DNA of 20,000 bases from an uncultured bacterium (GTDB lineage Bacteria; Armatimonadota; Abditibacteriia; Abditibacteriales; Abditibacteriaceae): positions 2,470,375 to 2,490,374 of the forward strand of contig CAWJLW010000006.1 of NCBI GenBank assembly GCA_963843795.1. Direction: 5' to 3'. Positions within the stretch are counted from its first letter, which is position 1. Each line of letters begins with the position of its first letter. This document shows positions 562 to 19,946 of the stretch, one piece after another. A program made the position numbers and the translations under genes. A model generated the notes under the pieces. The model was not told where the DNA came from and did not search any database. It saw nothing but the letters and a program-made list of their open reading frames with translations.

Positions 562-609
562 TCACTTGAAGCGGGCGCTGCAAGTACTTGCAGCGCCCGC
601 TTCAAGTGA
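562..609. terminator. 48-bp perfect palindrome centred on TGCAAGTACTTGCA, between convergent genes
   Basis: TCACTTGAAGCGGGCGCTGCAAGT|ACTTGCAGCGCCCGCTTCAAGTGA fills nearly all the space between the stop codons ending at 557 (+) and 610 (-). U-tracts are weak. Confidence 0.7.
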
Positions 610-1254
610 TTAGGCGATTTCGTTTTCGCGCCACGCTGTCCACCACAGCGCATTGTTCAAAATGCGACCGAAGCTTGGGTTTTCATACGCCGTCACGCCG
701 TGTCCCGATTCCAGACAAAACACGCGACTATCGTGGTAAAAATGCGTCCAGCCGATGGCACGCATCAATTCAGGGTGCGTGGTCGTAAACAACAGTTCGC
801 CCGCTTCGAGTTTGGGTTCTTGAATGTGGTAAATTTCATCCCGAATTACATAAGGTTCAACGCCTTTGGCAATAGGATGCGCGGGATTTTCGATTTTCAC
901 CGGAATATCTTGGTCGAATTTATAGCGGTTGTTATGGCGGTCGGCTATGCCGGTGATTTCGTTCCACAGCGGCCATTCTTTGAAAGCGACGAGGCCGTGA
1001 TGCAACACGATAATGCCCTGCTCGCGCCGCCCCAAAACGCTTTGCATCGTACTTTTCCACTTCTCGGCGAGTTCTTGTTGAAAGTTGTACATCACGACAA
1101 CATCATAAAGCGCGGCAGCTTTGGCATCGTAAGCCCAATCATCCAGAGACTGCACGTAAGAATCGACTTTTGGCATCGCGTGCCACAGATTGTGAAATGC
1201 CACCACGTTGAACGGATGGCCGCCGGTCACAACGGCAATTTGAAGATTTTTCAT
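610..1254 (-). CDS. ThuA-like (trehalose utilisation) domain protein
   Basis: Motifs VVTGGHPF, YDVVVMYN, GIIVLHHG, HPIAKGV..IRDEIY, IGWTH..SRVFCLESGH..AYENPSF..ILNNALWW match the ThuA/class I GATase-like fold. The ATG at 1254 is preferred over TTG at 1281. Confidence 0.8.
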   Translation of the reverse strand: MKNLQIAVVTGGHPFNVVAFHNLWHAMPKVDSYVQSLDDWAYDAKAAALYDVVVMYNFQQELAEKWKSTMQSVLGRREQGIIVLHHGLVAFKEWPLWNEITGIADRHNNRYKFDQDIPVKIENPAHPIAKGVEPYVIRDEIYHIQEPKLEAGELLFTTTHPELMRAIGWTHFYHDSRVFCLESGHGVTAYENPSFGRILNNALWWTAWRENEIA

Positions 1255-1337
1255 AGAATTTAGGTCCCGAATGCAGTGCAATAATTATGACGTATTCTTG
1301 CCCTGCAAGTACTTGCCAAACAAATTGAACAGAAAAT

Positions 1338-2294
1338 ATGACAGCAACCCGACACATTGAAATTTTAGATACGCACACTGGCGGCGAACCGACGCGCATC
1401 GTCGTCGCGGGCGCGCCCGATTTGGGTAGTGGAACCATCGCGGAACGCGCACAAACTTTTCGCGAAAAGTTTGACGGTTTTCGCAGTTGTGTAGTCAACG
1501 AGCCGCGCGGTAGCGATGTGATGGTGGGCGCGCTTTTGTTGGAGCCGCACGATAAAACGTGCACCGTGGGCGTAATTTTTTTCAATAATGTCGGCGTTCT
1601 GGGAATGTGCGGACATGGCAGCATCGGCGTCGGTGTGGCACTGCAATTTTTGGGGCGCGCGCAAAGTGGGCTGCATCGTGTGGAAACTCCGGTCGGAAAT
1701 GTCGAAATCGACCTGCAAAGCGAGCATCGTGTGGCCGTCGAAAACGTGCCGTCCTACCGTTTTCGCCGTGCCGTGACGGTTGAAGTCGAAGAATACGGCA
1801 CAGTAACCGGCGACATCGCGTGGGGCGGCAACTGGTTTTTCTTGGTCGGCCAACACCAAGAACGCGTGGCGGAAGATAATATCGCGCGCCTGACCGAGGT
1901 TTCGCTGCGCATTCGACGGGCGTTGGAAGCGCAAAATATCAGCGGGCGCGATGGCGGCGTTATCGACCATATCGAACTGTTCTCCGTGCCGACGACCGAA
2001 GGTGCGAACTCGAAAAATTTCGTCTTGTGCCCAGGCGCAGCTTATGATCGTTCGCCATGCGGAACCGGTACTAGCGCGAAAATTGCCTGTTTGGCAGCAG
2101 ATGGCAAATTGGCGCCGGGCGAAACTTGGGTGCAGGAATCCGTTATCGGCAGCACCTTTGAAGCTTCCTATCAAAATACCAGCGAGCCAGATATTATCGT
2201 GCCAAAAATCGTCGGCAGTGCGTGGATCATGGGACAGGGCACATTAATCGTTCAAGAGGGTGACCCGTTCGCTGAAGGAATTCGCTTGAAATAG
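1338..2294 (+). CDS. Proline racemase family enzyme, probably 4-hydroxyproline 2-epimerase
   Basis: N-terminal DTHTGGEPTR, EPRG, and both catalytic Cys motifs (MCGHG and DRSPCGTGTSAK) are present; 318 aa. Confidence 0.9.
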   Translation: MTATRHIEILDTHTGGEPTRIVVAGAPDLGSGTIAERAQTFREKFDGFRSCVVNEPRGSDVMVGALLLEPHDKTCTVGVIFFNNVGVLGMCGHGSIGVGVALQFLGRAQSGLHRVETPVGNVEIDLQSEHRVAVENVPSYRFRRAVTVEVEEYGTVTGDIAWGGNWFFLVGQHQERVAEDNIARLTEVSLRIRRALEAQNISGRDGGVIDHIELFSVPTTEGANSKNFVLCPGAAYDRSPCGTGTSAKIACLAADGKLAPGETWVQESVIGSTFEASYQNTSEPDIIVPKIVGSAWIMGQGTLIVQEGDPFAEGIRLK

Positions 2295-2306
2295 CGAAAA
2301 CAGCGG

Positions 2307-2338
2307 AATCAGCAGCGCAAGTACCTGCATTGCTGATT
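2307..2338. terminator. Imperfect hairpin around a variant motif (GCAAGTACCTGC), between convergent genes
   Basis: AATCAGCA...TGCTGATT arms flank the variant core at 2317-2328. Confidence 0.5.
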
Positions 2339-2366
2339 TGCATTTACGCGTCAGGGTCGCCCTCTT

Positions 2367-3323
2367 TTAAACATCCGACATTGCGTGCAATGTTTCCCAG
2401 AAATTCGCGTCGTAGGTTTGTTGCCATAAGCCGCGCACTTGTCCCAACAAATAACGCCGCCTGTTTACGTTATAACTGGCAAATTGTGCGGCATCGCCCG
2501 CCAAATCATCCTCGTGCTCGACATCAAAAGCTGTTTGCAACGTTTGATTGAGCACGGTGCGATCTTGCATTTCGCCCAGCACATCCTGCAATTCGACCAG
2601 AATTTTCACCGCCGCTTTGACTTTGCCATCATACGCCGGAGCGAAAGCTTCCAGTGTATAGCGCGTGCGGCGCAGCGCTTTGCGCAGTTCGTGCTGCCCG
2701 GTTTCATTAGCGCCTTCATCCAAGGTTTGGCCCAAAGCAAGCGAGGCTTCGATGCGGCTTTGCAAAATAAGGCGCGCGGCTTCGCGCAGCGAAATTTCAT
2801 CTTCCGACAAACCGGCTACGCCAGCCAGACTTGCCCCCCAAATCCGAAATTCGCTGCGCAATTTTTTTGGGCGTCGGTCTTTTTTAAGGCGGCGCGCTAA
2901 AATCTTGAATTCATCGGCGCGCTCGTCCCGCAAATACTTGCGGAAACTTTGCAATTCTTCGGACGCGTCGAGATTCAGATTTTCGCGTGCGGCAAACTCA
3001 TTCAGATACTCTTCGAGAACATCAAAGTCGCGCACCGCGCCCATGATATCGCCCAATTTTCCCAAATCGCTGCGGTGCGCTTTGATTTGCTTGACGATGT
3101 CGCGCGACAGCCACGCGCGCGCCTGCGGCTCCTGATAATTTTCCAGACACGAGCGCAAACGTCGCAGCGCAACGCGCATATCGTGCAAGGCTTCGGCATC
3201 GCCCGCAAGTACTTGCGCGTGGTGCGACCACGCTTTATCCCACAAACTCATGCTGAGCAGGCTCGCGCCCAGCAAAAACGGTTTGTCCGGCTTAATTCCA
3301 GCATCGCCCGCAATATCCGCCAT
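2367..3323 (-). CDS. CHAD domain protein (polyphosphate-binding family)
   Basis: Duplicated CHAD motifs: EALHDMRVALRRLRS / LGDIMGAVRDFDV and HELRKALRRTRYTLE / LQDVLGEMQD. ATG at 3323 has an upstream GAGG. The longer ORF to 3617 overlaps the divergent gene and is unlikely. Confidence 0.88.
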   Translation of the reverse strand: MADIAGDAGIKPDKPFLLGASLLSMSLWDKAWSHHAQVLAGDAEALHDMRVALRRLRSCLENYQEPQARAWLSRDIVKQIKAHRSDLGKLGDIMGAVRDFDVLEEYLNEFAARENLNLDASEELQSFRKYLRDERADEFKILARRLKKDRRPKKLRSEFRIWGASLAGVAGLSEDEISLREAARLILQSRIEASLALGQTLDEGANETGQHELRKALRRTRYTLEAFAPAYDGKVKAAVKILVELQDVLGEMQDRTVLNQTLQTAFDVEHEDDLAGDAAQFASYNVNRRRYLLGQVRGLWQQTYDANFWETLHAMSDV

Positions 3324-3447
3324 AAATTTCTCTACCTCTGGGTTCAATCGTGCGCAAAGTGCGCACCGAGTCCAATCACGACGAATGACAGGTTTAAACG
3401 CGCCATGAGATAGACTTTGATTTCCAATTTCCAGAGCGGTTTTTCTC

Positions 3448-6400
3448 ATGTCAACACCCAATCTATCCGAACAACCCGGCGCTTCAACACCCAATCCGCA
3501 ACGCAAACTTTTGTTGCGGGGAATTTTTGCCATTGCAATTATCGCGATCGCGGCGATAGGAACGATGTGGCGGCGCGCCAATGTTTTGCCAACTCCGGGC
3601 ACGCCCGAATACACCAAAATGGTACGCGCGTTTTATACCGGCGTCATCGCGATGCAAGTCGGCGATGACGAGCGCGCCGCGCGTAATCTCAAAAATGCCA
3701 TCACAATCGTGCCGCCCGAACCCGCCGCGCACGCCGATTTAGGTGTTCTGGCGCTGCGCGCGCGCGATTTTCCGACAGCTAAAACTAATCTCGACAAAGC
3801 GCGCGAACTGGCGCCCAACAACTCCGAAATCGAAGCGCTTTTGGGCGCTCTGGAAAAAGAACAGGGCAATTTCGACGGCGCGGTTTCGCATCTCAAACGC
3901 GCCATCGAACTTGATGGCAACAATCTGCGCGCTCGTTATGCATTGACCAAAATCATCGCGCAAATCGGAGCGGCGGACGCCGATGCGCAAGTTAAAACTC
4001 AGCTCGATGCGATTCTAAAAACGCAGCCCAATAATTTGGCCGCTCTTCTGGATGCGGCGCGTTTGTCGGCCAAAACCAACGATGCGGCCACGCTGAAAGA
4101 CGTACTGGCAAAGCTAAGTGCTAACAGCGGCGGTTGGAGCGCCGAAGCGCGCGAACAATTGCAGGAATTGCAGGCGGCGCCGATTAATCAGGCCACGACG
4201 CCCGCGATTTATCTGGCGAACCTGCTGCGCGCGCTGCCCGAATATCAAAGCGCGCTGCAAGTACTTGCACCAGCGGGCAACGCCGTCGCCGACCCAATCG
4301 AGAACTTTCTCGTTCTGCAAATTCCGTCCTCGCAACCCGCGCCGCCCGATAGCGCGCTGGCTTTCACGGCCAAGAACGTGATGACCAGCGCAAATTCGCA
4401 ATATGAAGGTGCCCGCGCTTTGATTGCCGACGAAAAAAGCGTGCCGCTCGCAGTGTTCAACGACCTCAAAACCGTGCAGATTTTCAGCGAACCCAAACCA
4501 GTTTCACTGCCGTTCACTGGCACAAAAACCCTGGCGGTTTTGGATTGGAACGCCGATTTTCAAAACGATTTGCTGGCGGCTGGCGCGCAAGGCTTGAAAT
4601 TCTGGCAAAACAACGACGGAAAATTCACCGATGTGAGCGCACAAACCAAGCTGCCCTCGCAAGTACTTGCGGGCACTTATCAAAACACATGGGTTGCCGA
4701 CATCGAAGCCGATGGCGATTTGGACATCGTTCTCAACCCCACCAATGGCGCGCCACTCGAACTACGCAACAATGGTGATGGCAGTTGGCAAACCCAACCA
4801 ATTTTCGCTTCAATTGCTGGAATCAACGCTTTTATTTGGTCGGATTTCGACAATGATAACGACAACGACGCGGCGCTGCTTGATAGTGCGGGCACGTTGC
4901 ATTTTTTCACCAATAATCGTTCGGGACAGTTCAGCGAGCGCACCGACATGGCAAAAATCGGTGCAGCTTTGGCTCTGGCAGTCAGCGATTTAAACAGCGA
5001 CGGTATTTTCGATTTGTTGGTGTGGCAACGAGATGGCGCGCTTTTGCGTTTGTGGCTCGAGGATGACAAATGGCAGCAACAGGTGCTGGGCAAATTCGCC
5101 GTCGAGGGGCAATTCACTGTCGCGCGCTTGCTGTGCGCCGATTTCGATAACAATGGTGCGCCCGATATTTTGGCGAGCGCCGACAATCAAACCCAAATCT
5201 GGCTGGGCGCTGGTGGCACCGATCTCAGCCCGCCGCTGAAGGTTGCGGGCGCAGTTTTCGATGTCGCGGACCTGAACAAAGATGGCCGTCTTGATTTGCT
5301 CGGCGTAGAAAACGGCAAGGCGACGCAGTGGATTAGCGCGGGCACGAAGAATTATCACTGGCAGGAGTTGCGCGCGCGCGCCAAGCAAACCCAGGGCGAT
5401 GGACGCATCAATTCGTTCGGCATCGGCGGTGAAATGGAATTGCGCGTTGGCACGATTTACCAAAAACGGATGATTGCGGCGCCGACCGTTCATTTCGGAT
5501 TGGGCGAAAACACGGCATCTGATGCGCTGCGTTTGACGTGGCCTAATGGCGACGCGCAAGGCGAATTTGAACTCAAAGCCGATCAAACCATTGTCGCCGA
5601 ACAACGCTTGACCGGCTCATGTCCGTATCTGTTTGTGTGGGATGGAACGCAAATGCGCTTTGTCAAAGATGTCAACTGGCGTTCTCCACTGGGATTGAAA
5701 ATCAATTCGCAAGACACAGCGGGTATTGTGCAAACCGAAGATTGGGCGCACATTCGCGGCGACCAGATGCAAGCCAAAGAAGGCAAATACGATTTGCGCA
5801 TCACGGCGGATTTGTGGGAAGCGCATTATTTCGATACTGTGCAATTGCTCAGCGTCGATCATCCGAAAAATACGCGCGTCTGGGTTGATGAACGCTTTTC
5901 GGTTCCGATGCCTCCGCTGCGGGTTTTAACGACGACAATAGACCAACCTTTAGCGCAAGTATTGGATACACAAAAGCGCGATGTGCGCGCGAAAGTGCGC
6001 GACTTGGACGCGGAATATCTCGATTGCGGGCGCGGCCAATATCAGGGCGTGACGCGCGATCATTGGATCGAAGGTGAACTGCCCGAATCTGCGCCGCGCG
6101 ACAACAAACTGTGGCTCATCGCACAAGGCTGGCTGCATCCGACCGATTCTTCGGTCAATGTGGCTCTGGCGCAAAATGGCATCGTGCCGCAGGATTTGAG
6201 CCTTGAAGTCGCCGATGGACACGGCGGTTGGCACGTGGCCCAAGCGCATTTGGGCTTTCCTGCAGGAAAAAACAAAGCGATTACAATTGATCTCAGTCGC
6301 GCGTTTGTGGCCAATGCGCCGCGACGTTTTCGCTTGCGCACCAATCTGGAAATCTATTGGGACAAAATTTCGTGGGCGCTTGAGTTGGATAATTCCAAAA

Positions 6401-6912
6401 CTAAAATCCAGCGTTCGCTCCCGGAAACGGCGCAATTGCGTTATCGCGGTTTCTCGAAAATCGTGGCAAAAAATGCCGCATCGCCGGAATTGCCGACTTC
6501 GTATCGACCCGATGCCGGTACGATGGCGCGCTGGCACGATTTGCCGGGCTTTTACACGCGCTTTGGAGATGTGCGCCCGCTGTTGGAGCGCATTGATGAT
6601 CGCTACGTTATTATGAACGCGGGCGACGAAATGCGCTTGCAATTTGTCGACCCCCCCGCACCAGCCAACGGACAAACGCGTGATTGGATTTTCATCAGCG
6701 ATGGCTGGACAAAGGATGGCAATTTGAACACGACATTTTCGCAAACGCTGCTACCTTTGCCAGCGCACAATTTGGCGCAAACCAATGTGCCGCCGACGAC
6801 GTTGCAAAACGATCCGGTTTACCGAAAACATCGTGACGATTGGCGCGATTATCACACGCGCTGGATCGATAATCAAAAGTTTCAGGGCGCTCTTCGTGCG
6901 GGCTTAAATTGA
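3448..6912 (+). CDS. Large membrane-anchored TPR + FG-GAP/VCBS + ASPIC/UnbV protein with an extra C-terminal domain
   Basis: N-terminal TM helix, then TPR-like repeats (AHADLGVLAL, ALLGALEKEQGNFDGA). Repeated DxDxDGxxD motifs (DIEADGDLD, DLNSDGIFD, DFDNNGAPD, DLNKDGRLD). ASPIC/UnbV-like VHFGLGE..LRLTWPNG, followed by about 430 aa starting at GSCPYLFVWDG. Confidence 0.85.
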   Translation: MSTPNLSEQPGASTPNPQRKLLLRGIFAIAIIAIAAIGTMWRRANVLPTPGTPEYTKMVRAFYTGVIAMQVGDDERAARNLKNAITIVPPEPAAHADLGVLALRARDFPTAKTNLDKARELAPNNSEIEALLGALEKEQGNFDGAVSHLKRAIELDGNNLRARYALTKIIAQIGAADADAQVKTQLDAILKTQPNNLAALLDAARLSAKTNDAATLKDVLAKLSANSGGWSAEAREQLQELQAAPINQATTPAIYLANLLRALPEYQSALQVLAPAGNAVADPIENFLVLQIPSSQPAPPDSALAFTAKNVMTSANSQYEGARALIADEKSVPLAVFNDLKTVQIFSEPKPVSLPFTGTKTLAVLDWNADFQNDLLAAGAQGLKFWQNNDGKFTDVSAQTKLPSQVLAGTYQNTWVADIEADGDLDIVLNPTNGAPLELRNNGDGSWQTQPIFASIAGINAFIWSDFDNDNDNDAALLDSAGTLHFFTNNRSGQFSERTDMAKIGAALALAVSDLNSDGIFDLLVWQRDGALLRLWLEDDKWQQQVLGKFAVEGQFTVARLLCADFDNNGAPDILASADNQTQIWLGAGGTDLSPPLKVAGAVFDVADLNKDGRLDLLGVENGKATQWISAGTKNYHWQELRARAKQTQGDGRINSFGIGGEMELRVGTIYQKRMIAAPTVHFGLGENTASDALRLTWPNGDAQGEFELKADQTIVAEQRLTGSCPYLFVWDGTQMRFVKDVNWRSPLGLKINSQDTAGIVQTEDWAHIRGDQMQAKEGKYDLRITADLWEAHYFDTVQLLSVDHPKNTRVWVDERFSVPMPPLRVLTTTIDQPLAQVLDTQKRDVRAKVRDLDAEYLDCGRGQYQGVTRDHWIEGELPESAPRDNKLWLIAQGWLHPTDSSVNVALAQNGIVPQDLSLEVADGHGGWHVAQAHLGFPAGKNKAITIDLSRAFVANAPRRFRLRTNLEIYWDKISWALELDNSKTKIQRSLPETAQLRYRGFSKIVAKNAASPELPTSYRPDAGTMARWHDLPGFYTRFGDVRPLLERIDDRYVIMNAGDEMRLQFVDPPAPANGQTRDWIFISDGWTKDGNLNTTFSQTLLPLPAHNLAQTNVPPTTLQNDPVYRKHRDDWRDYHTRWIDNQKFQGALRAGLN

Positions 6913-7004
6913 TTCCTGCAGGTACTTGCAGGTGAGAAAATCGCGCGAAATGGGTATAAAAAACTAGCTGCAAGTACTTGCAGCCTGCTGGCAGCACACA
7001 TATT

Positions 7005-8822
7005 ATGTCGAATTCTCGCTCTCGCCTTCCACAAATTATCGCCACTGTTATCTTTGGCGCACTCATCACAGTGCCCATTGTTCTCCAACGTCGCCAGAAC
7101 ACGCAAACCCCCAGCGCGCCCGACCAGAGCGGCGCGTTGAAACGATACGGTTTTTCACTGACCGAAGCCTCGCAAAAAGCGGGCATCGACTTTAAACATC
7201 AGGCACCGAAGCTGGATGCCAAACTTGACCATATCATGCCTCAAGTCGCTTCGATGGGCGCAGGCGTGGCGATTGGCGACTTCGACCGCGACGGTTGGGA
7301 CGATATTTATCTCACCAATTCGGCGCAAAATTCTCTCAACCGTTTGTATCGCAACCGGGGTGATGGCACCTTTGAAGACGTCGCGGGCGCGCTGGGCGTA
7401 GCAGACGTGAACCGTTTCGACGGCGATTCCAAAGGCACGTCAATGGGCGCCGTGTGGGGCGATTACGACAACGATGGCTGGGAAGACTTGCTGATTTACA
7501 AGTGGGGCAAACCGGAATTATTTCACAACGATGCGGGCAAAAAGTTTTCGCGCGCAACTGAGACTTCTGGCCTGCCGAACTGGGTGAACGCCAACAACGC
7601 CATCTGGTTCGATTACGACCGCGACGGCAAATTGGATATTTTCATTGGCGGCTACTACGCCGAAAACGTCAATTTATGGAAGCTGACTACGACGCGCATC
7701 ATGCCCGACAGTTTGGAATACGCGCGCAACGGCACCCGCAAGTACTTGCTGCACGGAATGGGCAACGGCAAATTCGAAGATGTGACGCAGAAAATGGGCT
7801 TGGACAGCAAAAGCTGGACGTTGGCTGCAGTCGCGGCGGATTTGCGCGGCACGGGCTATCCCGATTTATTCATCGCTAACGATTACGGTGTAGCCGAATT
7901 GTGGGCCAATCAAGGTGGCAAAAAATTCGTCAATATCGGCAAAGATAGCGGCGTCGGATATGCGCCCAAAAGTGGCATGAACGCTGCGGTTGGCGACGTG
8001 ATGAACAACGGGAATTTGGCAGTTTATGTGTCGAATATCTCCGAGCCAGGCGTTTTATTGCAGGGCAATAACTTGTGGATGCCGAATCCGGGCACCAAAG
8101 GCAACGGAGTCAAATATCAAAATCTGGCGCACGAAATGGGCGTGGAAGATGGCGGTTGGAGCTTTGGCGCGCAGTTCGGAGACTTGAACAACGACGGCCA
8201 TTTGGATTTATTTTTGGCCAACGGCTACGTTTCGGGCGACAAATCGAGCTACTGGTATGATTATTCGAAAGTTGCGGGCGGTAATAGTTCAATTATTTCT
8301 GACGCCGCAAACTGGCCGCCGATGAACAATCGGAATTTGTCTGGCAATCAGGCCAAACATTTATGGATTAACGATGGAAACGGCAATTTCACCGAAGTCG
8401 CGCAAGCCGTCGGCGCAACCGACCGTTTCGATGGCCGCGCGGTGGCTTTGGCCGATTTCAGAAATAACGGCGCATTAGACATCGTAGAATCGAATCAGCG
8501 TGGGCCGTTGCAATTGTATCGCAACACGGTGGCCGATGGTCGCGATTGGATTGAATTCGCGCTCGAGGGTGCTCAAAGCAATCGCAGCGCGATTGGTGCG
8601 CAAATCGTTATCAATTGGAAAAACGCGCAGGGCGAACAACAACAGAAACAGGAAATTAGCGGCGGCAGCGGATTTTGCGCGCAAAACTCGCGACGTATAC
8701 ATTTCGGCTTGGGCAAAAACGCAAAAATCGAGAAAATTCAAATCCGCTGGCCTTTGGGACAAACGCAAAACGTGGAGGCGATGGCCGTAAATCAACTGCA
8801 CAAAATCAAGGAAACGCTATGA
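7005..8822 (+). CDS. CRTAC1/ASPIC-UnbV family FG-GAP repeat protein
   Basis: N-terminal TM anchor. FG-GAP motifs GDFDRDGWDD, GDYDNDGWED, DYDRDGKLD, GDLNNDGHLD. C-terminal SNRSAIGA..GGSGFCAQNSRRIHFGLG..IQIRWP. The ATG at 7005 is chosen because the TTG at 6978 lies within the palindrome. Confidence 0.9.
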   Translation: MSNSRSRLPQIIATVIFGALITVPIVLQRRQNTQTPSAPDQSGALKRYGFSLTEASQKAGIDFKHQAPKLDAKLDHIMPQVASMGAGVAIGDFDRDGWDDIYLTNSAQNSLNRLYRNRGDGTFEDVAGALGVADVNRFDGDSKGTSMGAVWGDYDNDGWEDLLIYKWGKPELFHNDAGKKFSRATETSGLPNWVNANNAIWFDYDRDGKLDIFIGGYYAENVNLWKLTTTRIMPDSLEYARNGTRKYLLHGMGNGKFEDVTQKMGLDSKSWTLAAVAADLRGTGYPDLFIANDYGVAELWANQGGKKFVNIGKDSGVGYAPKSGMNAAVGDVMNNGNLAVYVSNISEPGVLLQGNNLWMPNPGTKGNGVKYQNLAHEMGVEDGGWSFGAQFGDLNNDGHLDLFLANGYVSGDKSSYWYDYSKVAGGNSSIISDAANWPPMNNRNLSGNQAKHLWINDGNGNFTEVAQAVGATDRFDGRAVALADFRNNGALDIVESNQRGPLQLYRNTVADGRDWIEFALEGAQSNRSAIGAQIVINWKNAQGEQQQKQEISGGSGFCAQNSRRIHFGLGKNAKIEKIQIRWPLGQTQNVEAMAVNQLHKIKETL

Positions 8823-9706: not shown

Positions 9707-9714
9707 AATTCAAT

Positions 9715-9766
9715 AAAACGTAAAAACGCCCTCTGCAAGTACTTGCAGAGGGCGTTTTTACGTTTT
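9715..9766. terminator. 52-bp perfect palindrome, probable bidirectional intrinsic terminator, centred on the motif
   Basis: AAAACGTAAAAACGCCCTCTGCAAGT|ACTTGCAGAGGGCGTTTTTACGTTTT lies between convergent genes and gives T-tracts on both strands. Confidence 0.85.
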
Positions 9767-9832
9767 GACTTTTGAGAATGGGATTATAGGCCCGCACGCT
9801 ACAAATTGAAACTTGCTAGCGGCTTGGACTTT

Positions 9833-11671: not shown

Positions 11672-12000
11672 AAGCCCTTCACTCCACAATTCGACAGATG
11701 CGCCGCCAACAACAATTCTCGCGCCGCAAACCACCAAATCCAAAACGGCCAAACGATGACCTTAATTTATCACATCAGAGACAACCATTTCAAAACTAAC
11801 GCGCCAAAATACACCTGCAAGTACTTGCAGGACACTCAAATCAGTAAATCAGCCGAATGGCGGCAAACGCTCTGCTACACTAATTGTTCAAACAAGTGTC
11901 CATTCACCACAGTGAATTCAACTCATTACAGCAATCAATTTCCGCCGCACAATTTGTCAATGTTTAGTCAACGACACTAAATTGTAGAAAAAGGTTTTTT

Positions 12001-12762
12001 ATGTCCAATCATTCCACGACAGTTCCCGTCAAGCCCACACAAGTTTATCCTTCAACCGAATCGGTCAACAAAGACAATCCGGAGCGCCAGTTCATCACAT
12101 TTTCGTTTTATCGCCTCGACCCGGCGTGGCGTCGTTTGTCGAAAGACGAGCAAGAAAAAGGCAAAGCCGAATGGCTTGAAGTCGTGCGCGAGTTCACCGA
12201 TGGGGGCACTATTGTCGTTCCGTATTCGTGCGTAGGTATTCGCGCTGACCACGATATTTTGTTGTGGCGCATCGACTACGACTTGGGACGTTTACAGCAG
12301 ATGCAGGCCGCTTTGTCGGGCACGGGGCTTGGCAAGTACTTGCTGCCCTCGCTGAGCTTTTTGTCGATGAGCAAACGCAGCGTTTACGTCGATAAAATCA
12401 ATCCCGACCACGACGACGAGCGCACAACCATCGCGCCCGGACGCGGCAAATATATCTTCGTTTATCCGTTCGTGAAAAGCCGCGACTGGTATTTGCTGCA
12501 CAAGCAAGCGCGTCAGGGCATCATGGACGAACATATTCAAATCGGCAATCAATTTCCTTCGGTGAAGCTGAACACAACTTACAGTTTCGGTTTGGACGAT
12601 CAAGATTTCGTGGTCGCATTTGAAGGCGACTTTCCCGAAGATTTTCTGGATTTGGTGATGGCACTGCGCGAAACCGAAAGCAGCAAATACACTGTGCGCG
12701 ACACGCCAATCATCACCGGAGTCAAAGGCACACAGGAAAGCATTTTGGAAACGCTGGGCTAA
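12001..12762 (+). CDS. chdC: Chlorite dismutase superfamily protein, probably coproheme decarboxylase (ChdC/HemQ)
   Basis: YPFVK..WYLL motif, proximal EH (MDEHIQIG) and SFGLDDQDFVV. By eye alignment, VKLNTT has Leu where true Cld has its catalytic Arg. Confidence 0.72.
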   Translation: MSNHSTTVPVKPTQVYPSTESVNKDNPERQFITFSFYRLDPAWRRLSKDEQEKGKAEWLEVVREFTDGGTIVVPYSCVGIRADHDILLWRIDYDLGRLQQMQAALSGTGLGKYLLPSLSFLSMSKRSVYVDKINPDHDDERTTIAPGRGKYIFVYPFVKSRDWYLLHKQARQGIMDEHIQIGNQFPSVKLNTTYSFGLDDQDFVVAFEGDFPEDFLDLVMALRETESSKYTVRDTPIITGVKGTQESILETLG

Positions 12763-12784
12763 AATCTGATGTTTTGATATTCTG

Positions 12785-12819
12785 AAAAGCCCGCTGCAAA
12801 TACCTGCAGCGGGCTTTTT
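12785..12819 (+). terminator. Intrinsic terminator whose stem-loop centre is a two-mismatch variant of the motif (GCAAATACCTGC)
   Basis: AAAAGCCCGCTGCA-AATACC-TGCAGCGGGCTTTTT begins about 22 nt after the chdC stop. Confidence 0.85.
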
Positions 12820-12844
12820 CGTTTCTGAACCGATTTACAAAATG

Positions 12845-12872
12845 TTGCGTTTACGAAAACGCGTTATAAAAT
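12845..12872 (+). promoter_or_regulatory. Possible sigma70-type promoter for tdh-kbl
   Basis: TTGCGT-16 nt-TAAAAT; pattern match only. Confidence 0.3.
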
Positions 12873-12903
12873 GCGGGCTGCGAGTTGCGCAGAGCCATAA
12901 GCG

Positions 12904-12923
12904 CGTGGCAAGTACTTGCCACG
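12904..12923. repeat. 20-bp perfect palindrome around the motif, upstream of tdh
   Basis: CGTGGCAAGTACTTGCCACG, ending about 46 nt before the tdh ATG. Confidence 0.8.
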
Positions 12924-12969
12924 TGCTAATTTGGTAATCTTCATTAGCAGTAGTCAGGAAGGAGCAAAA

Positions 12970-13999
<1,030 letters not shown>

Positions 14000-14022
14000 G
14001 CTTTCAACCAGATTTCAAAAAT

Positions 14023-15241
14023 ATGTCAACTTACACTCGTTTCGAAAATTATCTCACGACACAACTCGACGAAATTCGCGCAGCGGGAACGTTCAAAAAC
14101 GAGCGCCGCATCGACTCGCCGCAAGACGCGCATATCGAAGTCAACGGCAAAACCGTTCTGAACATGTGCGCCAACAATTATCTGGGCTTGGCCGAAGACC
14201 CGCAAGTGCTTGCAGCGGCCAAAAAGGCGTTGGACGATTGGGGCTACGGCTTGGCCAGCGTGCGTTTCATCTGCGGCACGCAGCAAATTCACACGCAACT
14301 CGAAAACAAAATGTCGGAATTTTTGGCACGGAGGACACGATTTTCTATTCTTCGTGTTTCGACGCCAACGGCGGCTTGTTCGAAACTTTGCTCGGGCCCG
14401 AAGACGCGATTATTTCCGACGCGCTTGAACCACGCTTCGATTATCGACGGCATGCGTTTGTGCAAGGCCAAGCGTTTTCGCTACGCCAACAACGACATGG
14501 CCGAACTGGAAGCGCAGCCTCATCGAAGCCAAAGACGCGCGTTTTCGTTTGATCGCCACCGATGGCGTGTTTTCGATGGACGGCATAATCGCCGACCTGA
14601 AAACCATCTGCGATTTGGCCGACAAATACGACGCGATGGTGATGGTCGACGATTCGCACGCCGTCGGTTTCATGGGCGCGCACGGTCGCGGCACGCACGA
14701 ACTGTGCGACGTGATGGGCCGCGTCGATATTATCACCGGCACTCTGGGCAAAGCCTTGGGCGGCGCGAGCGGCGGCTACACTTCGGGCCGCAAAGAAATC
14801 ATCGAATTGCTGCGCCAGCGTTCGCGCCCGTATCTGTTTTCCAACTCATTGGCGCCGATGATCGCCGCGACCTCGCTGCAAGTACTTGCCATGCTCGAAT
14901 CGCCCGATTTGCGCGACAAATTGGAGGACAACACCAAGTTTTTCCGCGCAGAAATCGTAAAACTTGGCTACACCATCGTCGAAAGCACGCACCCGATTGT
15001 GCCGATTATGCTGGGCGACGCGGCTCTGGCAGCGCGCATCGCCGATGCTTTGCTCGAACGCGGCGTTTACGTGATTGGCTTTTCGTATCCGGTCGTGCCG
15101 CAAGGCAAAGCGCGCATTCGCGTGCAAATTTCCGCCGCGCACTCGCGCGAAGATATGGAAACCGCGCTGCAAGCCTTCAGCGGTGTGAAATATCTGCTCG
15201 ATGAACATGCCGCAGCGAATTCCGAAGCGGTTGCAGCATAA
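14023..15241 (+). CDS. kbl: Glycine C-acetyltransferase (2-amino-3-ketobutyrate CoA ligase), split by three apparent frameshifts (sequencing error or pseudogene)
   Basis: [51 protein letters not shown], the PLP lysine in GTLGKALGG, and [11 protein letters not shown] are spread over three frames, with shifts near 14325, 14425 and 14518. Confidence 0.9.
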
Positions 15242-15313
15242 TTCGCAACTAAAACCCATTGTAATCGCGTAATCGTCGCTTCTGTCATTGCGAGTTACCG
15301 AAAATCAAACTAC

Positions 15314-15349
15314 AAAAAGCGCGCTGCAAGTACTTGCAGCGCGCTTTTT
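15314..15349. terminator. 36-bp perfect palindrome, bidirectional terminator between kbl and gap, centred on the motif
   Basis: AAAAAGCGCGCTGCAAGT|ACTTGCAGCGCGCTTTTT. Confidence 0.88.
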
Positions 15350-15368
15350 CGGTTGGTGCGAACTTGGT

Positions 15369-16385
15369 TTACAGACCGCGTTCGGCCATGTAGTTGATCA
15401 AGTCGGCGACGCGGCAGGAATAGCCCCACTCGTTGTCGTACCAGCTCAAAACTTTCAGCAGGTTGTCGCCCAAAACCATGGTGTTGGGTGCATCGACAAT
15501 CGAAGAAAGGCTGTTGCCTTTGTAATCGACCGAAACCAGCTCTTCGTCTTCGATACCCAGAATTCCCTTCATCGGGCCAGCGGCGGCGGCGCGGAACGCG
15601 TCGTTGACGGCTTCGGCAGTGACAGATTGTCCGGTATTAACAACCAAGTCAACCAGAGAAACCGTCGCGGTCGGAACGCGCAGCGACATGCCGTGCATTT
15701 TGCCCGTGAGTTCGGGGATCACGAGAGAAATCGCTTTGGCGGCGCCAGTTGAAGTCGGAATGATATTCATCGCAGCGGCACGGGCGCGGCGCAGATCTTC
15801 GTGAACTTGGTCGGCGATTTTCTGATCGTTAGTATAGGAATGAATCGTGTTCATCAAACCTTTTTCGATGCCGAAGTTGTCCAAAATGACTTTGGCAATC
15901 GGAGCCAGACAGTTGGTCGTGCAGCTCGCGTTCGAGATGACGGTGTGCTTGGCGGGATCATAAAGTTCGTTGTTGACGCCCATCACAAAAGTCGCGTCTT
16001 CGTTTTTGGCCGGAGCCGAAATCACGACTTTCTTGGCGCCGCCCGAATCGACGTGAGCGCGCGCTTTGTTGGCGTCGGTGAAGAAGCCGGTCGATTCGAC
16101 AACGACATCAACGCCAACATCGCCCCATTTCAGAGCGGCAGGGTCGCGTTCTTTGAACACTTTCACAGCTTCACCATTAACAATGAAACCGTCGTCGGTG
16201 ACTTCGATTGTGCCGGGGAAAGCGCCGTAGTTAGAATCGTGCTTCAATAAATGAGCGTTAGTTTTGGGGTCTGACAAATCGTTAATAGCGACAATATCAA
16301 TGCTATCGCCATATTTTTCTGTGATCGCGCGAAACGTAATGCGACCGATGCGTCCAAATCCGTTAATACCGACTTTCACTGCCAT
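15369..16385 (-). CDS. gap: Type I glyceraldehyde-3-phosphate dehydrogenase
   Basis: [30 protein letters not shown] and WYDNEWGYS motifs. GGAGG RBS (16396-16400) lies upstream of the ATG at 16385. Confidence 0.98.
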
Positions 16386-16520
16386 ATTAAATTGGCCTCC
16401 AGAGTTTTTGACATACATGAACAGTTGCGAGTCCGTCATATTCCCGCGTCGCCGCTTCATGTTTCCCTGCAAATTATAACGAAATAGTCAGCAATAAGCA
16501 CGTCTCCGCTGCTTGTCGCT

Positions 16521-17450
16521 CTAAACCACAATGCAACCTTCGCTATCCAATTTCAATTCCAGCGCGCGTCCTACAATCCCCGCCTCGCGCATCGTGTTTT
16601 CAATGCGTGCAAGTACTTGCAGCGCGTTCGCGTCGGGATGAAGCCAGATTAAAACCGTCGGGCCAGCACCCGAAATCGTGACGCCCAAACAGTGTTCGTT
16701 GTCTCCCAATGATTTTTTTAAAATGCCAAAAGCAGGAATCAAACGGGCGCGCTGATTTTGATGCAAACGATCTTGCAGCGCGACCGGCAATTGTTGCCAA
16801 TCGGCATTTTGCAAACTGGCTAAGAGAAAAGCGGTCGCGCTGAGATTAAAAATCGTATCGGCGCGCGAAACTTCTTGCGGCAAAACCTTCCGCGCGGCTT
16901 TAGTTTCCAGTTGCGCTTCGGGAATGAAAACTACGAATTGTGGGTTAGTTTTGATTGCGAATTGAGAAGCGCAGAACGTATGATTTTCGGTTGTCATCGA
17001 AACCGTCAGGCCGCCCAGAAGCGCGGCGGCGACGTTATCGGGATGGCCTTCCAATTCGCTTGCCAATCGCAACAGTTCATCGCGCGTAGCGCTTTTGCGA
17101 TATTGATTTTCCAGCCACGCATTCGCAGCTACTAAAGCGCCCACGCGCGCCGCCGAACTGGAACCCAAGCCGCGCGCGAAAGGAATTTCGTTTTCCAAGT
17201 ACAGATGAATCGGCGGCAAATCGAGCTGCAAGTACTTGCATAAGTGCTGCACGGCAACGAACGCGATATTATTTTCCAGTGCGCCCAGATTATCGGCGCT
17301 TTGGCCAGTGGCAGTGATTTGATGTTGATTAGTAGAAGAACTGGAAACTGAAACGTGATTATAAAGTTGCAGCGCCAGACCCAAGCAATCGAAGCCGGGG
17401 CCGAGATTGGCGCTGGAAGCGGGCACGCGCGCACGAAAGGTTTTATTCAT
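16521..17450 (-). CDS. thrB: Homoserine kinase (GHMP family)
   Basis: PASSANLGPGFDCLGLAL, IPFARGLGSSSAA, EGHPDNVAAA and ISGAGPT motifs. Confidence 0.95.
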   Translation of the reverse strand: MNKTFRARVPASSANLGPGFDCLGLALQLYNHVSVSSSSTNQHQITATGQSADNLGALENNIAFVAVQHLCKYLQLDLPPIHLYLENEIPFARGLGSSSAARVGALVAANAWLENQYRKSATRDELLRLASELEGHPDNVAAALLGGLTVSMTTENHTFCASQFAIKTNPQFVVFIPEAQLETKAARKVLPQEVSRADTIFNLSATAFLLASLQNADWQQLPVALQDRLHQNQRARLIPAFGILKKSLGDNEHCLGVTISGAGPTVLIWLHPDANALQVLARIENTMREAGIVGRALELKLDSEGCIVV

Positions 17451-17629
17451 GAAAAGTAATTAATCATAAACCAACCCTGATGCAAAATAAAATCAGCGCG
17501 CGCAAGTACTTGCAGTGGTTTTACGACCAGCATTCTGGTGAGGCGCACAGTGGCAAGCGCAACTGCTTTTCGCATCTTTTGTCTACGCTTGTGCTGTTTA
17601 TTTTGAAATCGCAACAGAAAAATCGTATT

Positions 17630-18319
17630 ATGTTCCAGCTTCTTTTCTTCAAAAATCTATTTATCAAGCGTGCTGTGTTATGCTGCAGCACTCTGTTTTT
17701 CGTGGCAGTTGCGCCCGGCGCGCGCGCCATGCCTGCGCCCGATGCTCTGGCTCCTAAAAGCGATGCGCCCAGAGTGGAAGAATCGAAAAACGAAGTGGTC
17801 ACGCCCAACCCACAAGGTGCAGCAGGAGCAGCAGGAGCCGATGAAGACAATGTCGAGAGCGCGGCGGCCAAAGCGCCGAAAAGTGCCGAGGAAAAAGCGC
17901 GCGTAGCCCAGATGCAGGAAGAACGCCGCCGTCAGCGCAGCCAGCGCGAAGCCGAATTGCGCGAACTGTTAATGGGCTATGGTATCGCCGAACGCATGCC
18001 GCAAGACGAAATCATTCGCTATATCGCGCATCAAACTCAAGTCAACGAAAAATTGCAGCGCAAAGGTGCCGAACTTTACAACGCGTTGCGCGACAACAGC
18101 ATCAGCGAAGATCGCGTTTATCAATTGTTGACCGCTTATCGTCTGACTTTGGCGCGCAACCGCGAAAGCCGCCAGAAAGATGAAGACCAGTTAAACGAGC
18201 GCATCAGTTTTCGGAATCAGCCGCGTTTGGCAGCTCTATTGGAATTGGCGGGCATTATTGGTGATGGGCCGCTAAACTTGCCGCCGCCCGATAAGCGCGC
18301 CGACAACGCATCACGCTGA
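17630..18319 (+). CDS. Hypothetical secreted helical protein
   Basis: Signal-peptide-like KRAVLCCSTLFFVAVAPGARA, then an Ala/Pro/Glu-rich linker and charged helical segments. The start is uncertain (ATG at 17630 preferred over 17480). Confidence 0.7.
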   Translation: MFQLLFFKNLFIKRAVLCCSTLFFVAVAPGARAMPAPDALAPKSDAPRVEESKNEVVTPNPQGAAGAAGADEDNVESAAAKAPKSAEEKARVAQMQEERRRQRSQREAELRELLMGYGIAERMPQDEIIRYIAHQTQVNEKLQRKGAELYNALRDNSISEDRVYQLLTAYRLTLARNRESRQKDEDQLNERISFRNQPRLAALLELAGIIGDGPLNLPPPDKRADNASR

Positions 18320-18336
18320 AAATCTGATGCACGCTA

Positions 18337-18370
18337 CAAACCGCTTTGCAAGTACTTGCAAAGCGGTTTG
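18337..18370. terminator. 34-bp perfect palindrome centred on the motif, probable terminator
   Basis: CAAACCGCTTTGCAAGT|ACTTGCAAAGCGGTTTG is followed by a T-rich tail and lies between co-directional genes. Confidence 0.7.
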
Positions 18371-18396
18371 ATTAGTTTTGGTAAAGGAAATTTTTC

Positions 18397-19884
18397 ATGA
18401 ACGAGCAGTTCGAGAACATCGTTGACGACAATATCGCTGAAGGCCCGTTTGAACCCTCGTGGGAATCGCTGTCAAATTATCAGTGCCCCGATTGGTTTCG
18501 CGATGCCAAATTTGGTATTTGGGCGCACTGGGGGCCGCAAAGCGTGCCAATGTTCGGCGATTGGTACGCCAAGCATATGTATGAGCAGGACGGGCCGCAC
18601 GGACAATATGCTCATCACGTCGAGAAGTTTGGCCATCCGTCGCAGTTCGGCATGAAAGATATTTTTCCACTGTGGACCGCAGAAAAGTTCGATCCCGAAG
18701 CCTTGATGGAATTATTTGTCGAGGCAGGCGCGCGTTACTTTGTTTCCATGGGCGTGCATCACGATAATTTCGATTTGTGGAATTCACAACACACGCGCTG
18801 GAACGCGGTGAACATGGGACCAAAGCGCGATATTTTAGCCGCTTGGCAGTCCGCCGCGAAAAAGCACGATTTGCCATTTGGAGTTTCCGAACATTTGGCG
18901 GCAAGTTTCACCTGGTGGCAAACCAGTCACGGCACCGATAACACTGGCGATTTCGCGGGAGTTCCATATGATGGAAATGACCCGCAGTATGAAGATTTGT
19001 ATCATCGCTTGGCCGCGCCAGGTGACAATGCATGGTATTCCAACGATCCGCAATGGGCGTGCGATTGGTACCGGCGCATTCGCGATTTGCTCGATCAATA
19101 CCAGCCAGACTTGCTATATTCCGATGGCGCGCTGCCATTCGGCAAAGTCGGATTGACGATGTTGGCGCATTTTTACAATTCTAATATTGAACAGCACAAT
19201 GGAAAGTTGGAAGCGGTTTACAATTTGAAAGACTGGAGTCAGCGGCCCGGACATGGCGACTTCCGCGAAGGCATCGGTGTGCAAGACGTAGAACGTGGCG
19301 GCCTGTCACAGATTAACGATGCGCCCTGGCAAACTGATACTTCCATTGGCGACTGGTTCTACAACCAGAATTGGCAAGCCAACGATACCGGAACAATGTA
19401 TCGTGGTGCGCCTTGGGTAATTCGAAACATGGTCGATATGGTGAGCAAAAACGGCAATATGCTCTTGAACGTGATTCAGCGCCCGGATGGTTCGCTAGAT
19501 GAAGAAGTGCAGCAATTGCTCAGTGAAGTCGGCGTATGGATGAAAATCAACGGTGAGGCAATTTACCAAACGCGCCCCTGGCGCATTTACGGCGAAGGCG
19601 ATACCGAAGTTGAAGAAGGTGCTTTCAAGGAAGATTTCTCTTTCAGCGCTGCTGATATTCGTTTCACGCAAGCCAAAGACCAAAGTGCACTTTATGCTAT
19701 CGCCCTGGGCTGGCCTGCAAGTGGAAAATTGCACATCAAAGCACTGGCCCGGGAAACCATCAACAGCGTGAACCTGCTAGGGCACAATGGCGAACTCGCT
19801 TTCGAGCAAAACGCCGATGGCTTGATGGTAACTTTGCCCCAAACGCCGCTGAGCACAGTGGCTTGCAGTTTGAAAATTACGTGA
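18397..19884 (+). CDS. Alpha-L-fucosidase, GH29
   Basis: PSWESL..PDWFRDAKFGIWAHWG, HHDNFDLWNS, LLYSDG (nucleophile region), VSKNGNMLLNV and GEAIYQTRPW motifs. No signal peptide seen. AAGGA RBS. Confidence 0.93.
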   Translation: MNEQFENIVDDNIAEGPFEPSWESLSNYQCPDWFRDAKFGIWAHWGPQSVPMFGDWYAKHMYEQDGPHGQYAHHVEKFGHPSQFGMKDIFPLWTAEKFDPEALMELFVEAGARYFVSMGVHHDNFDLWNSQHTRWNAVNMGPKRDILAAWQSAAKKHDLPFGVSEHLAASFTWWQTSHGTDNTGDFAGVPYDGNDPQYEDLYHRLAAPGDNAWYSNDPQWACDWYRRIRDLLDQYQPDLLYSDGALPFGKVGLTMLAHFYNSNIEQHNGKLEAVYNLKDWSQRPGHGDFREGIGVQDVERGGLSQINDAPWQTDTSIGDWFYNQNWQANDTGTMYRGAPWVIRNMVDMVSKNGNMLLNVIQRPDGSLDEEVQQLLSEVGVWMKINGEAIYQTRPWRIYGEGDTEVEEGAFKEDFSFSAADIRFTQAKDQSALYAIALGWPASGKLHIKALARETINSVNLLGHNGELAFEQNADGLMVTLPQTPLSTVACSLKIT

Positions 19885-19916
19885 GCAGCCGATCTATGCT
19901 GTAACTTTGAGTTCAT

Positions 19917-19946
19917 GAAGCGCTGCAAGTACTTGCAGGTGCTTTC
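19917..19946 (+). terminator. Imperfect hairpin around the motif, downstream of the fucosidase gene
   Basis: GAAGCG-CTGCAAGTACTTGCAG-GTGCTTTC. Confidence 0.45.

Follow-up and report, generated by a model that had tools for sequence, protein, structure and literature searches.

The 20-kb stretch of DNA analyzed here (20,000 nucleotides; the window) comes from an uncultured bacterium of the Abditibacteriaceae, the family named on homologous proteins and records, and is interspersed with copies of a 12-bp perfect palindrome, GCAAGTACTTGC. The palindrome is real and apparently undescribed, and it appears to be of the same kind as highly iterated palindromes (HIPs) and DNA uptake signals, with a testable link to restriction-modification (R-M). 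A first-pass annotation had taken it for a lineage-specific, genome-wide signal resembling HIP1 or a DNA uptake sequence (DUS). This is borne out by 2567 copies in the source genome, dialects in relatives, recurrence in independent assemblies and at orthologous codons, and an orphan methyltransferase (MTase) that is probably specific for GTAC. A full-text literature search, with subscription papers and preprint supplements beyond its reach, returned no description of GCAAGTACTTGC or its dialects.

As an explanation we put first, at a little short of an even chance, a methylation-marked self-DNA signal that would favor uptake or recombination of kin DNA, with an R-M mark co-opted and read by a protein. 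The alternatives are weighed below beside the evidence that bears on them.

Abundance, placement and spacing of the palindrome

A recount of the window agrees with the 18 exact copies first reported (positions 580-19936), 10 of which take the full 14-mer form, and with the minimum of five variants: five near copies carry one or two mismatches, where dinucleotide shuffles average 0.93 for all matches with at most two mismatches. None of 200 shuffles contained an exact copy. By our own gene calls, 10 copies are intergenic and 8 genic, among unrelated housekeeping and accessory genes. Four of the 18 form the apex of a perfect palindrome extended by 11-20 bp per side, and the terminator-like examples fold into hairpins with z of -5 to -12. 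At 0.9/kb, the window is denser than the chromosome average of 0.63/kb.

In the source genome (G000; 4.30 Mb in 11 contigs, with 3340 genes in our own gene set), the exact copies amount to 597 per Mb, or about one per 1.7 kb, and the runner-up 12-mer palindrome has 33 copies. Expected counts are 0.32 under a Markov model of order 2 and 0.45 under order 4 with the motif masked (orders above 4 are contaminated by the motif itself), giving an observed-to-expected ratio (O/E) in the thousands. Comparison with Markov and codon-resampled nulls, which had been recommended with the first-pass annotation, yielded a strong excess, and copies lie on 11 of 11 contigs. Single-mismatch forms total 506, mostly transitions, and are distributed over all positions.

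An artefact of assembly or base calling, or an enrichment confined to one contig, had been named as what would overturn the signal. The assembly does look frameshifted in places: the kbl-like gene after tdh (window 13728-15241) is split over three reading frames, and mutS (G000:C6:2528748) and a type ISP-like gene (C6:748575-751655) look similarly broken, probably through long-read indel errors. The same motif nevertheless occurs in independent assemblies of other species (62-68% GC), at orthologous codons and with a reading-frame bias, and an artefact is refuted, with practically no probability left.

Copies are spread evenly along the chromosome. On the main contig, 68 of 72 full bins of 50 kb hold 25-43 copies, with neither the regional restriction nor the strand polarity of SlmA, MatP, KOPS or Chi-type sites. 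The suggested likeness to the SlmA site extends to the shared AGTACT core and no further, as the sites are uniform along the chromosome. Foreign-looking islands, their genes labeled by inspection, are nearly free of the palindrome, with one copy each in a 26 kb region rich in insertion sequences, a 26 kb type I R-M region and a 33 kb region of 63% GC resembling a type IV secretion system. Two further features were observed on contig C6. A stretch of 63% GC with VirB-like genes at the contig end (G000:C6:3590000-3623414) is either an integrated element or a misassembled foreign piece, and five parS-like sites adjoining parA (G000:C6:3511616-3515023) mark a probable origin region.

Placement could be assigned to 2563 copies, of which 1820 (71%; 2.75/kb) are intergenic and 743 (29%; 0.20/kb) coding. 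The coding copies read xQVLA (489), xKYLx (141) or ASTC (113), and synonymous-codon resampling yields 5-7 of them. The DNA signal is thereby seen to reshape the proteome: the tetrapeptide QVLA occurs 560 times against 37 expected (15-fold) and ASTC 131 times against 4 (34-fold). Between genes, 554 copies head longer palindromes that peak 20-30 bp past stop codons, mostly with T-tails, and 66% of copies between convergent gene pairs extend perfectly by at least 6 bp. The other 1266 of 1820 intergenic copies are single and lack a long hairpin. Since long hairpins are lacking at two thirds of the intergenic copies and at almost every coding copy, terminator use is secondary.

These placements bear on a mobile repeat of the repetitive extragenic palindrome (REP) type, spread by a REP-associated tyrosine transposase (RAYT) and used as terminators. 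REPs are extragenic hairpins that have a 5' tetranucleotide and stand on either side of their cognate RAYT gene. The intergenic majority and the hairpin-heading copies suit such an origin, as do the 22-bp element of one relative (G006), which is REP-like with terminal GTAC, and a single RAYT-like gene in G000 (L081, G000:C6:751650-752480), scoring 72 bits, below the cut-off of 80. That gene is flanked by its own GTAG-type repeat pairs, unrelated to GCAAGTACTTGC, and a REP origin of the palindrome therefore fails. It is further contradicted by the 743 in-frame copies within genes, by 53 of 68 ortholog comparisons without a nearby gap, by the absence of any cluster of three or more copies within 120-bp steps, and by the many intergenic copies without a long hairpin. 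We consider it largely refuted and very improbable.

Spacing is as regular as abundance is high. In intergenic regions of more than 50 bp, occupancy stays flat with length at about 0.4-0.8, with about one site per region. Counts per 20 kb have a variance-to-mean ratio of 0.52 (Poisson = 1), compared with 2.1 in a coding-aware null that clumps copies in long intergenic regions; gaps above 4 kb number 80 versus 235 in the null; and the median distance from a coding copy to the nearest intergenic copy is 1042 bp versus 690 +/- 32. Pair distances, examined for spacing below 6 kb, run at about half of the plateau at 200-800 bp and level near 1 kb. The sites mutually exclude each other over about 1 kb.

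A neutral ratchet would account for this pattern if methyl-directed mismatch repair nicked at the methylated palindrome and so favored mutations creating it, until each base lay within about 1 kb of a site, with no further function. Elhai's repair model of HIPs, in section 3.4 of PMC4390886, predicts saturation and gap-filling at about 1 kb, as seen here; MutL and MutS are present, and in G009 mutL is followed by the MTase gene at a distance of about 3 kb. Against the ratchet, that linkage is not seen at other MTase loci, and neither MutH nor a DpnI-like reader was found in the 5 of 5 genomes searched. MutL has an endonuclease-type motif of its own and is present, whether or not the palindrome is, in 25 of 27 genomes. 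Under the ratchet, deviations should gather at the ends and spare the core, whereas they fall over all positions, and the phased flanks described below are left unexplained. We regard it as improbable.

The copies in the window are as follows (positions of the stretch):

562-609: exact copy 580-591, apex of a 48-bp perfect palindrome (perfect extension 18) between convergent genes; terminator-like, RNA fold -44.6 kcal/mol, z -12
1305-1316: exact copy, single, in a divergent intergenic region; no stable hairpin, z -0.2
2317-2328: one-mismatch variant, intergenic
2930-2941: one-mismatch variant within the open reading frame (ORF) 2367-3323(-)
3205-3216: exact copy within ORF 2367-3323(-), xQVLA frame
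4257-4268: exact copy in an ORF of 1154 aa containing tetratricopeptide repeats (TPR); encodes LQVLA
4659-4670: exact copy in the same 1154-aa TPR-containing ORF; encodes SQVLA
6918-6929: one-mismatch variant of the commonest A>G form, 5 bp past a stop codon
6970-6981: exact copy, intergenic
7738-7749: exact copy in a 614-aa ORF; encodes RKYLL
9715-9766: exact copy 9735-9746, at the center of a perfect palindrome of 52 bp that is T-tailed on either strand; resembles a bidirectional terminator, fold -39.2 kcal/mol, z -12
11817-11828: exact copy in a divergent intergenic region
12332-12343: exact copy in a HemQ/ChdC-like gene; encodes GKYLL
12784-12819: two-mismatch variant 12796-12807 forming the loop of a terminator-like hairpin; fold z -7
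12908-12919: exact copy upstream of tdh, with imperfect palindromic flanks
14202-14213: one-mismatch variant with broken core, in the frameshifted kbl-like gene; encodes PQVLA
14878-14889: exact copy in the kbl-like gene; encodes LQVLA
15314-15349: exact copy 15326-15337, apex of an A5-GCGCGCT...AGCGCGC-T5 palindrome downstream of the gene gap; terminator-like, fold z -5.2
16609-16620: exact copy in thrB; encodes LQVLA
17228-17239: exact copy in thrB; encodes CKYLQ
17502-17513: exact copy in a divergent intergenic region
18337-18370: exact copy 18348-18359, apex of a 34-bp perfect palindrome; terminator-like, fold z -6.5
19925-19936: exact copy, 40 bp past a stop codon

Dialects, positional conservation and phased flanks

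The exact 12-mer is scarce among relatives, with 0-3 copies in each of 60 of 60. A survey of relatives, as suggested at the outset, uncovered AGTACT-centered dialects in five of them: (C)CAAAGTACTTTG(G) in G001, with 2725 copies of AAGTACTT; (A)TCGAGTACTCGA(T) in G009, G015 and G019; and GAGTACTC, with loose flanks, in G012. Across 301 genomes of the phylum that are at least 70% complete, a threshold that leaves out G001, AGTACT reaches 2800-4700 per genome in G000, G009, G012, G015 and G019 only, and the other 296 peak at 1197. Many family members have 1-33 copies, and at least 11 total 1-21 sites.

Several other sequence features of the relatives were observed. AGTACT and GTAC are extremely avoided in G005, G008, G011, G022, G026 and genera g17 and g56, with 0-5 sites in many genomes of 2.4-6 Mb, to our knowledge among the strongest cases of site avoidance; in the Abditibacteriaceae among them, CTAG is avoided as well. 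G006 carries a different, 22-bp palindrome, GTACGGTCGA-WW-TCGACCGTAC, with GTAC at both ends; it is apparently intergenic, evenly spaced at about 0.4/kb and often has A/T tails (loci L031, L047 and L084), and it may be a separate REP-like or derived signal. Small stretches of two motif-poor genomes (G024:C98; L039 and L067 of G017) hold clustered AGTACT-centered sites, some in the G000 dialect, possibly as transferred DNA, misbinned contigs or remnants.

Metagenomic contigs of 62-68% GC, mostly 50-80% identical to G000 in protein sequence, represent two independent species that carry the same dialect as G000, (G)CAAGTACTTG(C), with AGTACT at 1.2-1.3/kb, a density biased upward because loci were picked by motif. 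The scan covered at least 132 loci, 80 with flanks. The set used comprises 31 + 30 loci from two assemblies, after overlapping loci, a third assembly duplicating one organism and short or unrelated matches were dropped. Three DNA runs of one study gave short contigs only, may be related to the source sample and were not used as support.

Of the G000 coding sites with an ortholog in the two metagenomic species, 20 of 32 and 17 of 28 have AGTACT at identical codons there, although amino-acid identity is about 66% and four-fold sites are only 45-48% identical. Codons are also shared across dialects, each relative using its own: 3 of 20 in G012, 2 of 28 in G009 and 1 of 4 in G001, where at most 0.03 is expected for each comparison. 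No same-codon AGTACT was found in G017 (0/7), G006 (0/10) or G015/G019 (0/1). Gaps shorter than 300 bp number 18 versus 87 in G009 and 15 versus 55 in G012, the same short-range exclusion as in G000. Taken with the few alignment gaps between orthologs, the codon conservation and cross-dialect sharing mean that the sites have a long history, originate by substitution and switch dialect without moving. Substitution origin and conservation at orthologous positions are both hallmarks of HIPs.

The flanks are less featureless than first described. They had been said to share little beyond a loose GC(T) extension, which is wrong: genome-wide, they follow AAA-(GCGC)GCT / AGC(GCGC)-TTT, with AT patches every 10.5-10.75 bp. 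This oscillation of A/T content runs on both sides of the motif, with peaks about 14.5, 25, 35.5, 46, 56.5 and 67 bp from the dyad, and fades by about 100 bp. It is present in each of the three reading frames, and non-coding bases by themselves show it too. Its amplitude is 2.0%, compared with 0.7-0.9% around T-tract anchors far from motifs and 0.3% around other GTAC, and it survives absence of the first tract (1.8%). Among relatives, the first peaks are similar in G009; phasing is weak in G012 and one metagenomic species, and the other metagenomic species has none.

The motif data require a factor that recognizes a dyad of about 12 bp, has a range of about 1 kb and favors flanks that are phased. 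The AT patches suggest a protein that bends or wraps the flanking DNA at the motif. Their phase is that of a single continuous bend whose major groove faces inward at the dyad, the place of an adenine methyl, a geometry familiar from nucleosome work.

Such flanks invite a purely intracellular, chromosome-handling role, in which an abundant dimeric protein would bind the methylated or hemimethylated dyad, wrap about 150-200 bp and either organize supercoil loops or load repair or replication machinery once per kb, with purifying selection rather than uptake maintaining the sites. The 10.5-bp phase of the AT peaks in all frames speaks for this, as does the uniform distribution of sites along the chromosome and on parA-bearing contigs; a chromosome-structure role is also among the proposals for HIP1 in PMC5861425. 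On the other side, no histone-fold protein was found in the 5 of 5 genomes searched, and HU is single-copy in motif-rich and motif-poor genomes alike. The role cannot be an essential family-wide function, given the family genomes with so few AGTACT sites, and dialects that change quickly are rather a trait of uptake signals. We rank chromosome handling second, less likely than not but the main rival.

Alternatively, the sites could be strong DNA gyrase sites fixed in the sequence: gyrase would make its 4-bp staggered cut at GTAC, and the GyrA C-terminal domains would be wrapped by the phased arms. PMC6379681 gives a symmetric E. coli gyrase motif of 130 bp with a period of 10.75 bp. The period agrees, the palindrome is enriched just past stop codons and between convergent genes, and the GyrA/ParC family has a single gene in each of 25 of 27 genomes. 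The AT peaks of the published consensus, compared by eye from supplement sheet DS10 for one reference species, fall at about 18.5, 29.5, 38.5, 49.5 and 61 bp and are thus about 4 bp out of phase. The parts of the GyrA alignment on either side of its middle revealed no motif-specific feature, and gyrase reads shape rather than a fixed 12-mer. We find this reading highly unlikely.

An orphan methyltransferase and the case for a self-DNA signal

As to the METHYLTRANSFERASE link, G000 encodes one N6/N4 MTase, of the beta class with the motif DPPY (C6:2517365-2518135), 27 kb from the window, and had no match to the 5-methylcytosine (m5C) MTase profile PF00145. Of 27 family genomes, 22 have an ortholog, which is broken in two of them; 7 of 7 motif-rich genomes are among the 22. 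The gene neighborhoods are unconserved. Among the best 80 of 252 MTase loci across GTDB, a PabI-family gene lies 6 bp upstream of the MTase homologue in five; the three such neighbors tested match Pfam PF09522, with a match to the PabI structure at E 4e-21. PabI acts on GTAC and is blocked by N6-methyladenine (m6A). Because its homologues pair with PabI-family neighbors, the orphan MTase is probably specific for GTAC, and GTAC sites would then carry m6A. The target-recognition region is conserved from the PabI-linked homologues to G000, with no dialect-specific pattern by eye. Other GTAC is depleted here (O/E 0.62-0.66). Of the five family genomes without the MTase, three have relaxed GTAC and CTAG and two are still depleted.

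A second neighbor, convergent with the MTase in five of the best 80 loci, encodes 215 aa and matches a type II restriction endonuclease (REase; E 3e-8), with PvuII/ScaI-like leads only; its specificity would presumably be for GTAC. The family (L101:4473-5120(-), P0121) has homologues in cyanophages and giant-virus clusters, and plasmid and phage searches returned no named relative. Of the 27 family genomes, 13 have this REase-like partner, in many cases at a distance from the MTase; all 13 are AGTACT-poor, and none of the seven motif-rich genomes has it. G000 has no match to its profile and no detectable PabI-like gene; a PabI-family search over the 27 genomes gave no match even in controls and is hence uninformative. 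Among the 22 MTase-positive genomes, motif-bearing and motif-lacking ones number 0 and 13 with the partner and 7 and 2 without it (Fisher p 2e-4, an overstated value, as kin are not independent, G006 has a different element and some genomes are incomplete).

A three-gene tree (from a fast search with 2000 replicates, in which G001 covers 248 of the 1770 columns) nests G003 and G017, which have the partner and no motif, among motif-rich genomes with an approximate likelihood-ratio (aLRT) support of 98.6, and motif-rich monophyly is rejected by the approximately unbiased (AU) test (p <=0.01). Together with the shared sites, this nesting suggests that the motif may have been lost in G003 and G017 on gaining the nuclease.

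Two arrangements at other MTase loci were observed. In about 40 of the best 80 (L119-L180, Verrucomicrobiaceae), the MTase stands as an orphan between genes resembling the large and small subunits of acetolactate synthase, and these loci have no iterated palindrome. In G014, G005 and G025 (L086, L092 and L079), an Mrr-like gene directly adjoins it.

In the explanation that we put first, a 12-14 bp dyad would be built on the GTAC target of the retained orphan adenine MTase and read by a putative dimeric protein, which would bend or wrap the DNA on either side. One site would serve about 1 kb, so that point mutation would create sites wherever they can be accommodated (gaps between genes, loops of terminators and QVLA, KYL or ASTC codons) until there is about one per kb. 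A bias toward uptake or recombination of marked kin DNA would drive and maintain them. Historically, a GTAC R-M system may have lost its nuclease, its mark turning from "cut unmarked DNA" to "accept marked DNA". HIP1 and RAATTY are the two described over-represented palindromes with an orphan MTase, and for both a methylated site is reported to raise transformation (10.1101/2024.09.10.611283; PMC13756078). G000 has ComEC and ComEA and pattern matches to DprA, ComM and PilB/T. These precedents and competence genes, with the parallels to DUS and uptake signal sequences (USS) given below, rank a self-DNA signal first and a chromosome or repair site second; the two are not mutually exclusive.

Several observations weigh against a self-DNA signal marked at GTAC. 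Searches identified no reader or receptor gene, and ComEC and ComEA are equally frequent in motif-poor relatives. G004 and G007 have the MTase, no partner found and no motif, and the MTase alone is therefore insufficient; that of G015 reads EPPY rather than DPPY. None of 58 non-Abditibacteria MTase loci has iterated AGTACT; all 58 measure at least 7 kb, 8 shorter loci having been set aside. GTAC O/E is below 0.7 in 48 of these and CTAG in 46, so that GTAC depletion alone does not decide the MTase target; where CTAG O/E is at least 0.75, GTAC is at most 0.64 in 7 of 9 loci. Within GCAAGTACTTGC, the GTAC core, 4 of 12 positions, takes 140 of the 506 single mismatches and is no rarer a place for them. 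No "ghost" sites were found in G003 or G017, though a loss scenario might predict them. Finally, phased flanks reaching 70-100 bp are no less compatible with a chromosomal role inside the cell, and so are the parA-bearing contigs C5 and C9, with the site at 0.44-0.50/kb; both favor a chromosome or repair site.

Two other screens were made. One, for a small and abundant protein by codon bias, was drawn to foreign genes and gave no information. No phage of the host was identified, viral matches to three patterns being single or in unrelated viruses of 38-47% GC. Several GTGCAAGTACTTGCAC-like sites on such unrelated viral contigs (L188, L195, L207 and L221) are perhaps phage operators.

Comparison with known systems

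The E. coli SlmA site, GTGAGTACTCAC, is present in few copies and absent from ter. Like GCAAGTACTTGC, it is a 12-bp palindrome with an AGTACT core, and the G012 dialect shares 8 bp with it; GCAAGTACTTGC differs in having thousands of sites, uniform throughout and including the terminus half. Type II GTAC R-M systems, with a PabI-family or PD-(D/E)XK-like partner, share the MTase family and its target-recognition region. Those systems avoid their site, whereas G000 amasses it and has no detectable PabI-like or partner-like gene. The GTAC orphan MTases listed in PMC10609329 are archaeal and m4C (N4-methylcytosine) only. In Campylobacter jejuni, the RAATTY/CtsM system combines a palindromic site, an orphan MTase and a preference for methylated DNA in transformation, as outlined in 10.1101/2024.09.10.611283. 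RAATTY is a degenerate 6-mer that equals the MTase target and occurs every ~60 bp; GCAAGTACTTGC is three times longer than its inferred target.

USS have AT-rich flanks, and both DUS and USS form terminators as inverted pairs. With Neisseriaceae DUS and Pasteurellaceae USS, the palindrome shares 1500-2500 copies per genome, even spacing, a sharp drop from exact to one-mismatch forms, dialects at the level of genus or species, terminator use, AT-rich flanking patches, a proteome imprint and scarcity in foreign DNA. In its terminators, a single dyad serves as hairpin apex, unlike the inverted pairs of DUS and USS. DUS and USS are words of 9-12 bp that act through a sequence-specific uptake receptor; searches identified no receptor gene for GCAAGTACTTGC. 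The uptake sequences treated in PMC1939737 are non-palindromic, in contrast to the perfect palindrome GCAAGTACTTGC.

The closest comparison is with HIP1 (GCGATCGC), whose function and origin have been open for three decades, a kind of signal so far described mainly in cyanobacteria; uptake sequences, for their part, come from few lineages. We propose the Abditibacteriaceae as a natural experiment that cyanobacteria largely lack, with motif-rich, motif-free, nuclease-bearing and MTase-less genomes side by side and several dialects. They offer a testable route from R-M to a genome-wide signal, a 12-bp word long enough for clean pull-downs, and a signature at species level that can serve binning and later genetic work on these bacteria. 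One possible account, tentative and well under even, is that GCAAGTACTTGC is an independent non-cyanobacterial HIP: a GTAC R-M pair would have lost its nuclease, a new reader would have taken over the methyl mark and would wrap about 150-200 bp around the 12-bp dyad once per kb, and reader and genome would co-evolve into dialects at fixed orthologous positions, while nuclease-bearing sisters nearly erased the core, leaving both end states in one family.

HIP1 proper is ruled out for GCAAGTACTTGC by sequence, by phylum and by the missing PF00145 match in G000. HIP1 is a cyanobacterial 8 bp word associated with an m5C CGATCG MTase and with a chromosomal periodicity of 10-90 kb; GCAAGTACTTGC has 12-14 bp, a GTAC core, one beta-class amino-MTase and another phylum as its host. 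It is further unlike HIP1 in being strongly intergenic, in occurring in terminators, in its 10.5-bp phased flanks and in having sister lineages that are almost core-free. Its density in G000 lies within the abundance expected of HIPs (more than 10-fold over-representation, hundreds to thousands per Mb). Overall, it shares with HIP1 and Elhai's alternative HIPs a palindrome at about 1/kb in and between genes, an origin by substitution, conservation at orthologous sites, lineage-specific variants and probably, if the MTase acts on GTAC, an orphan-MTase target within the word.

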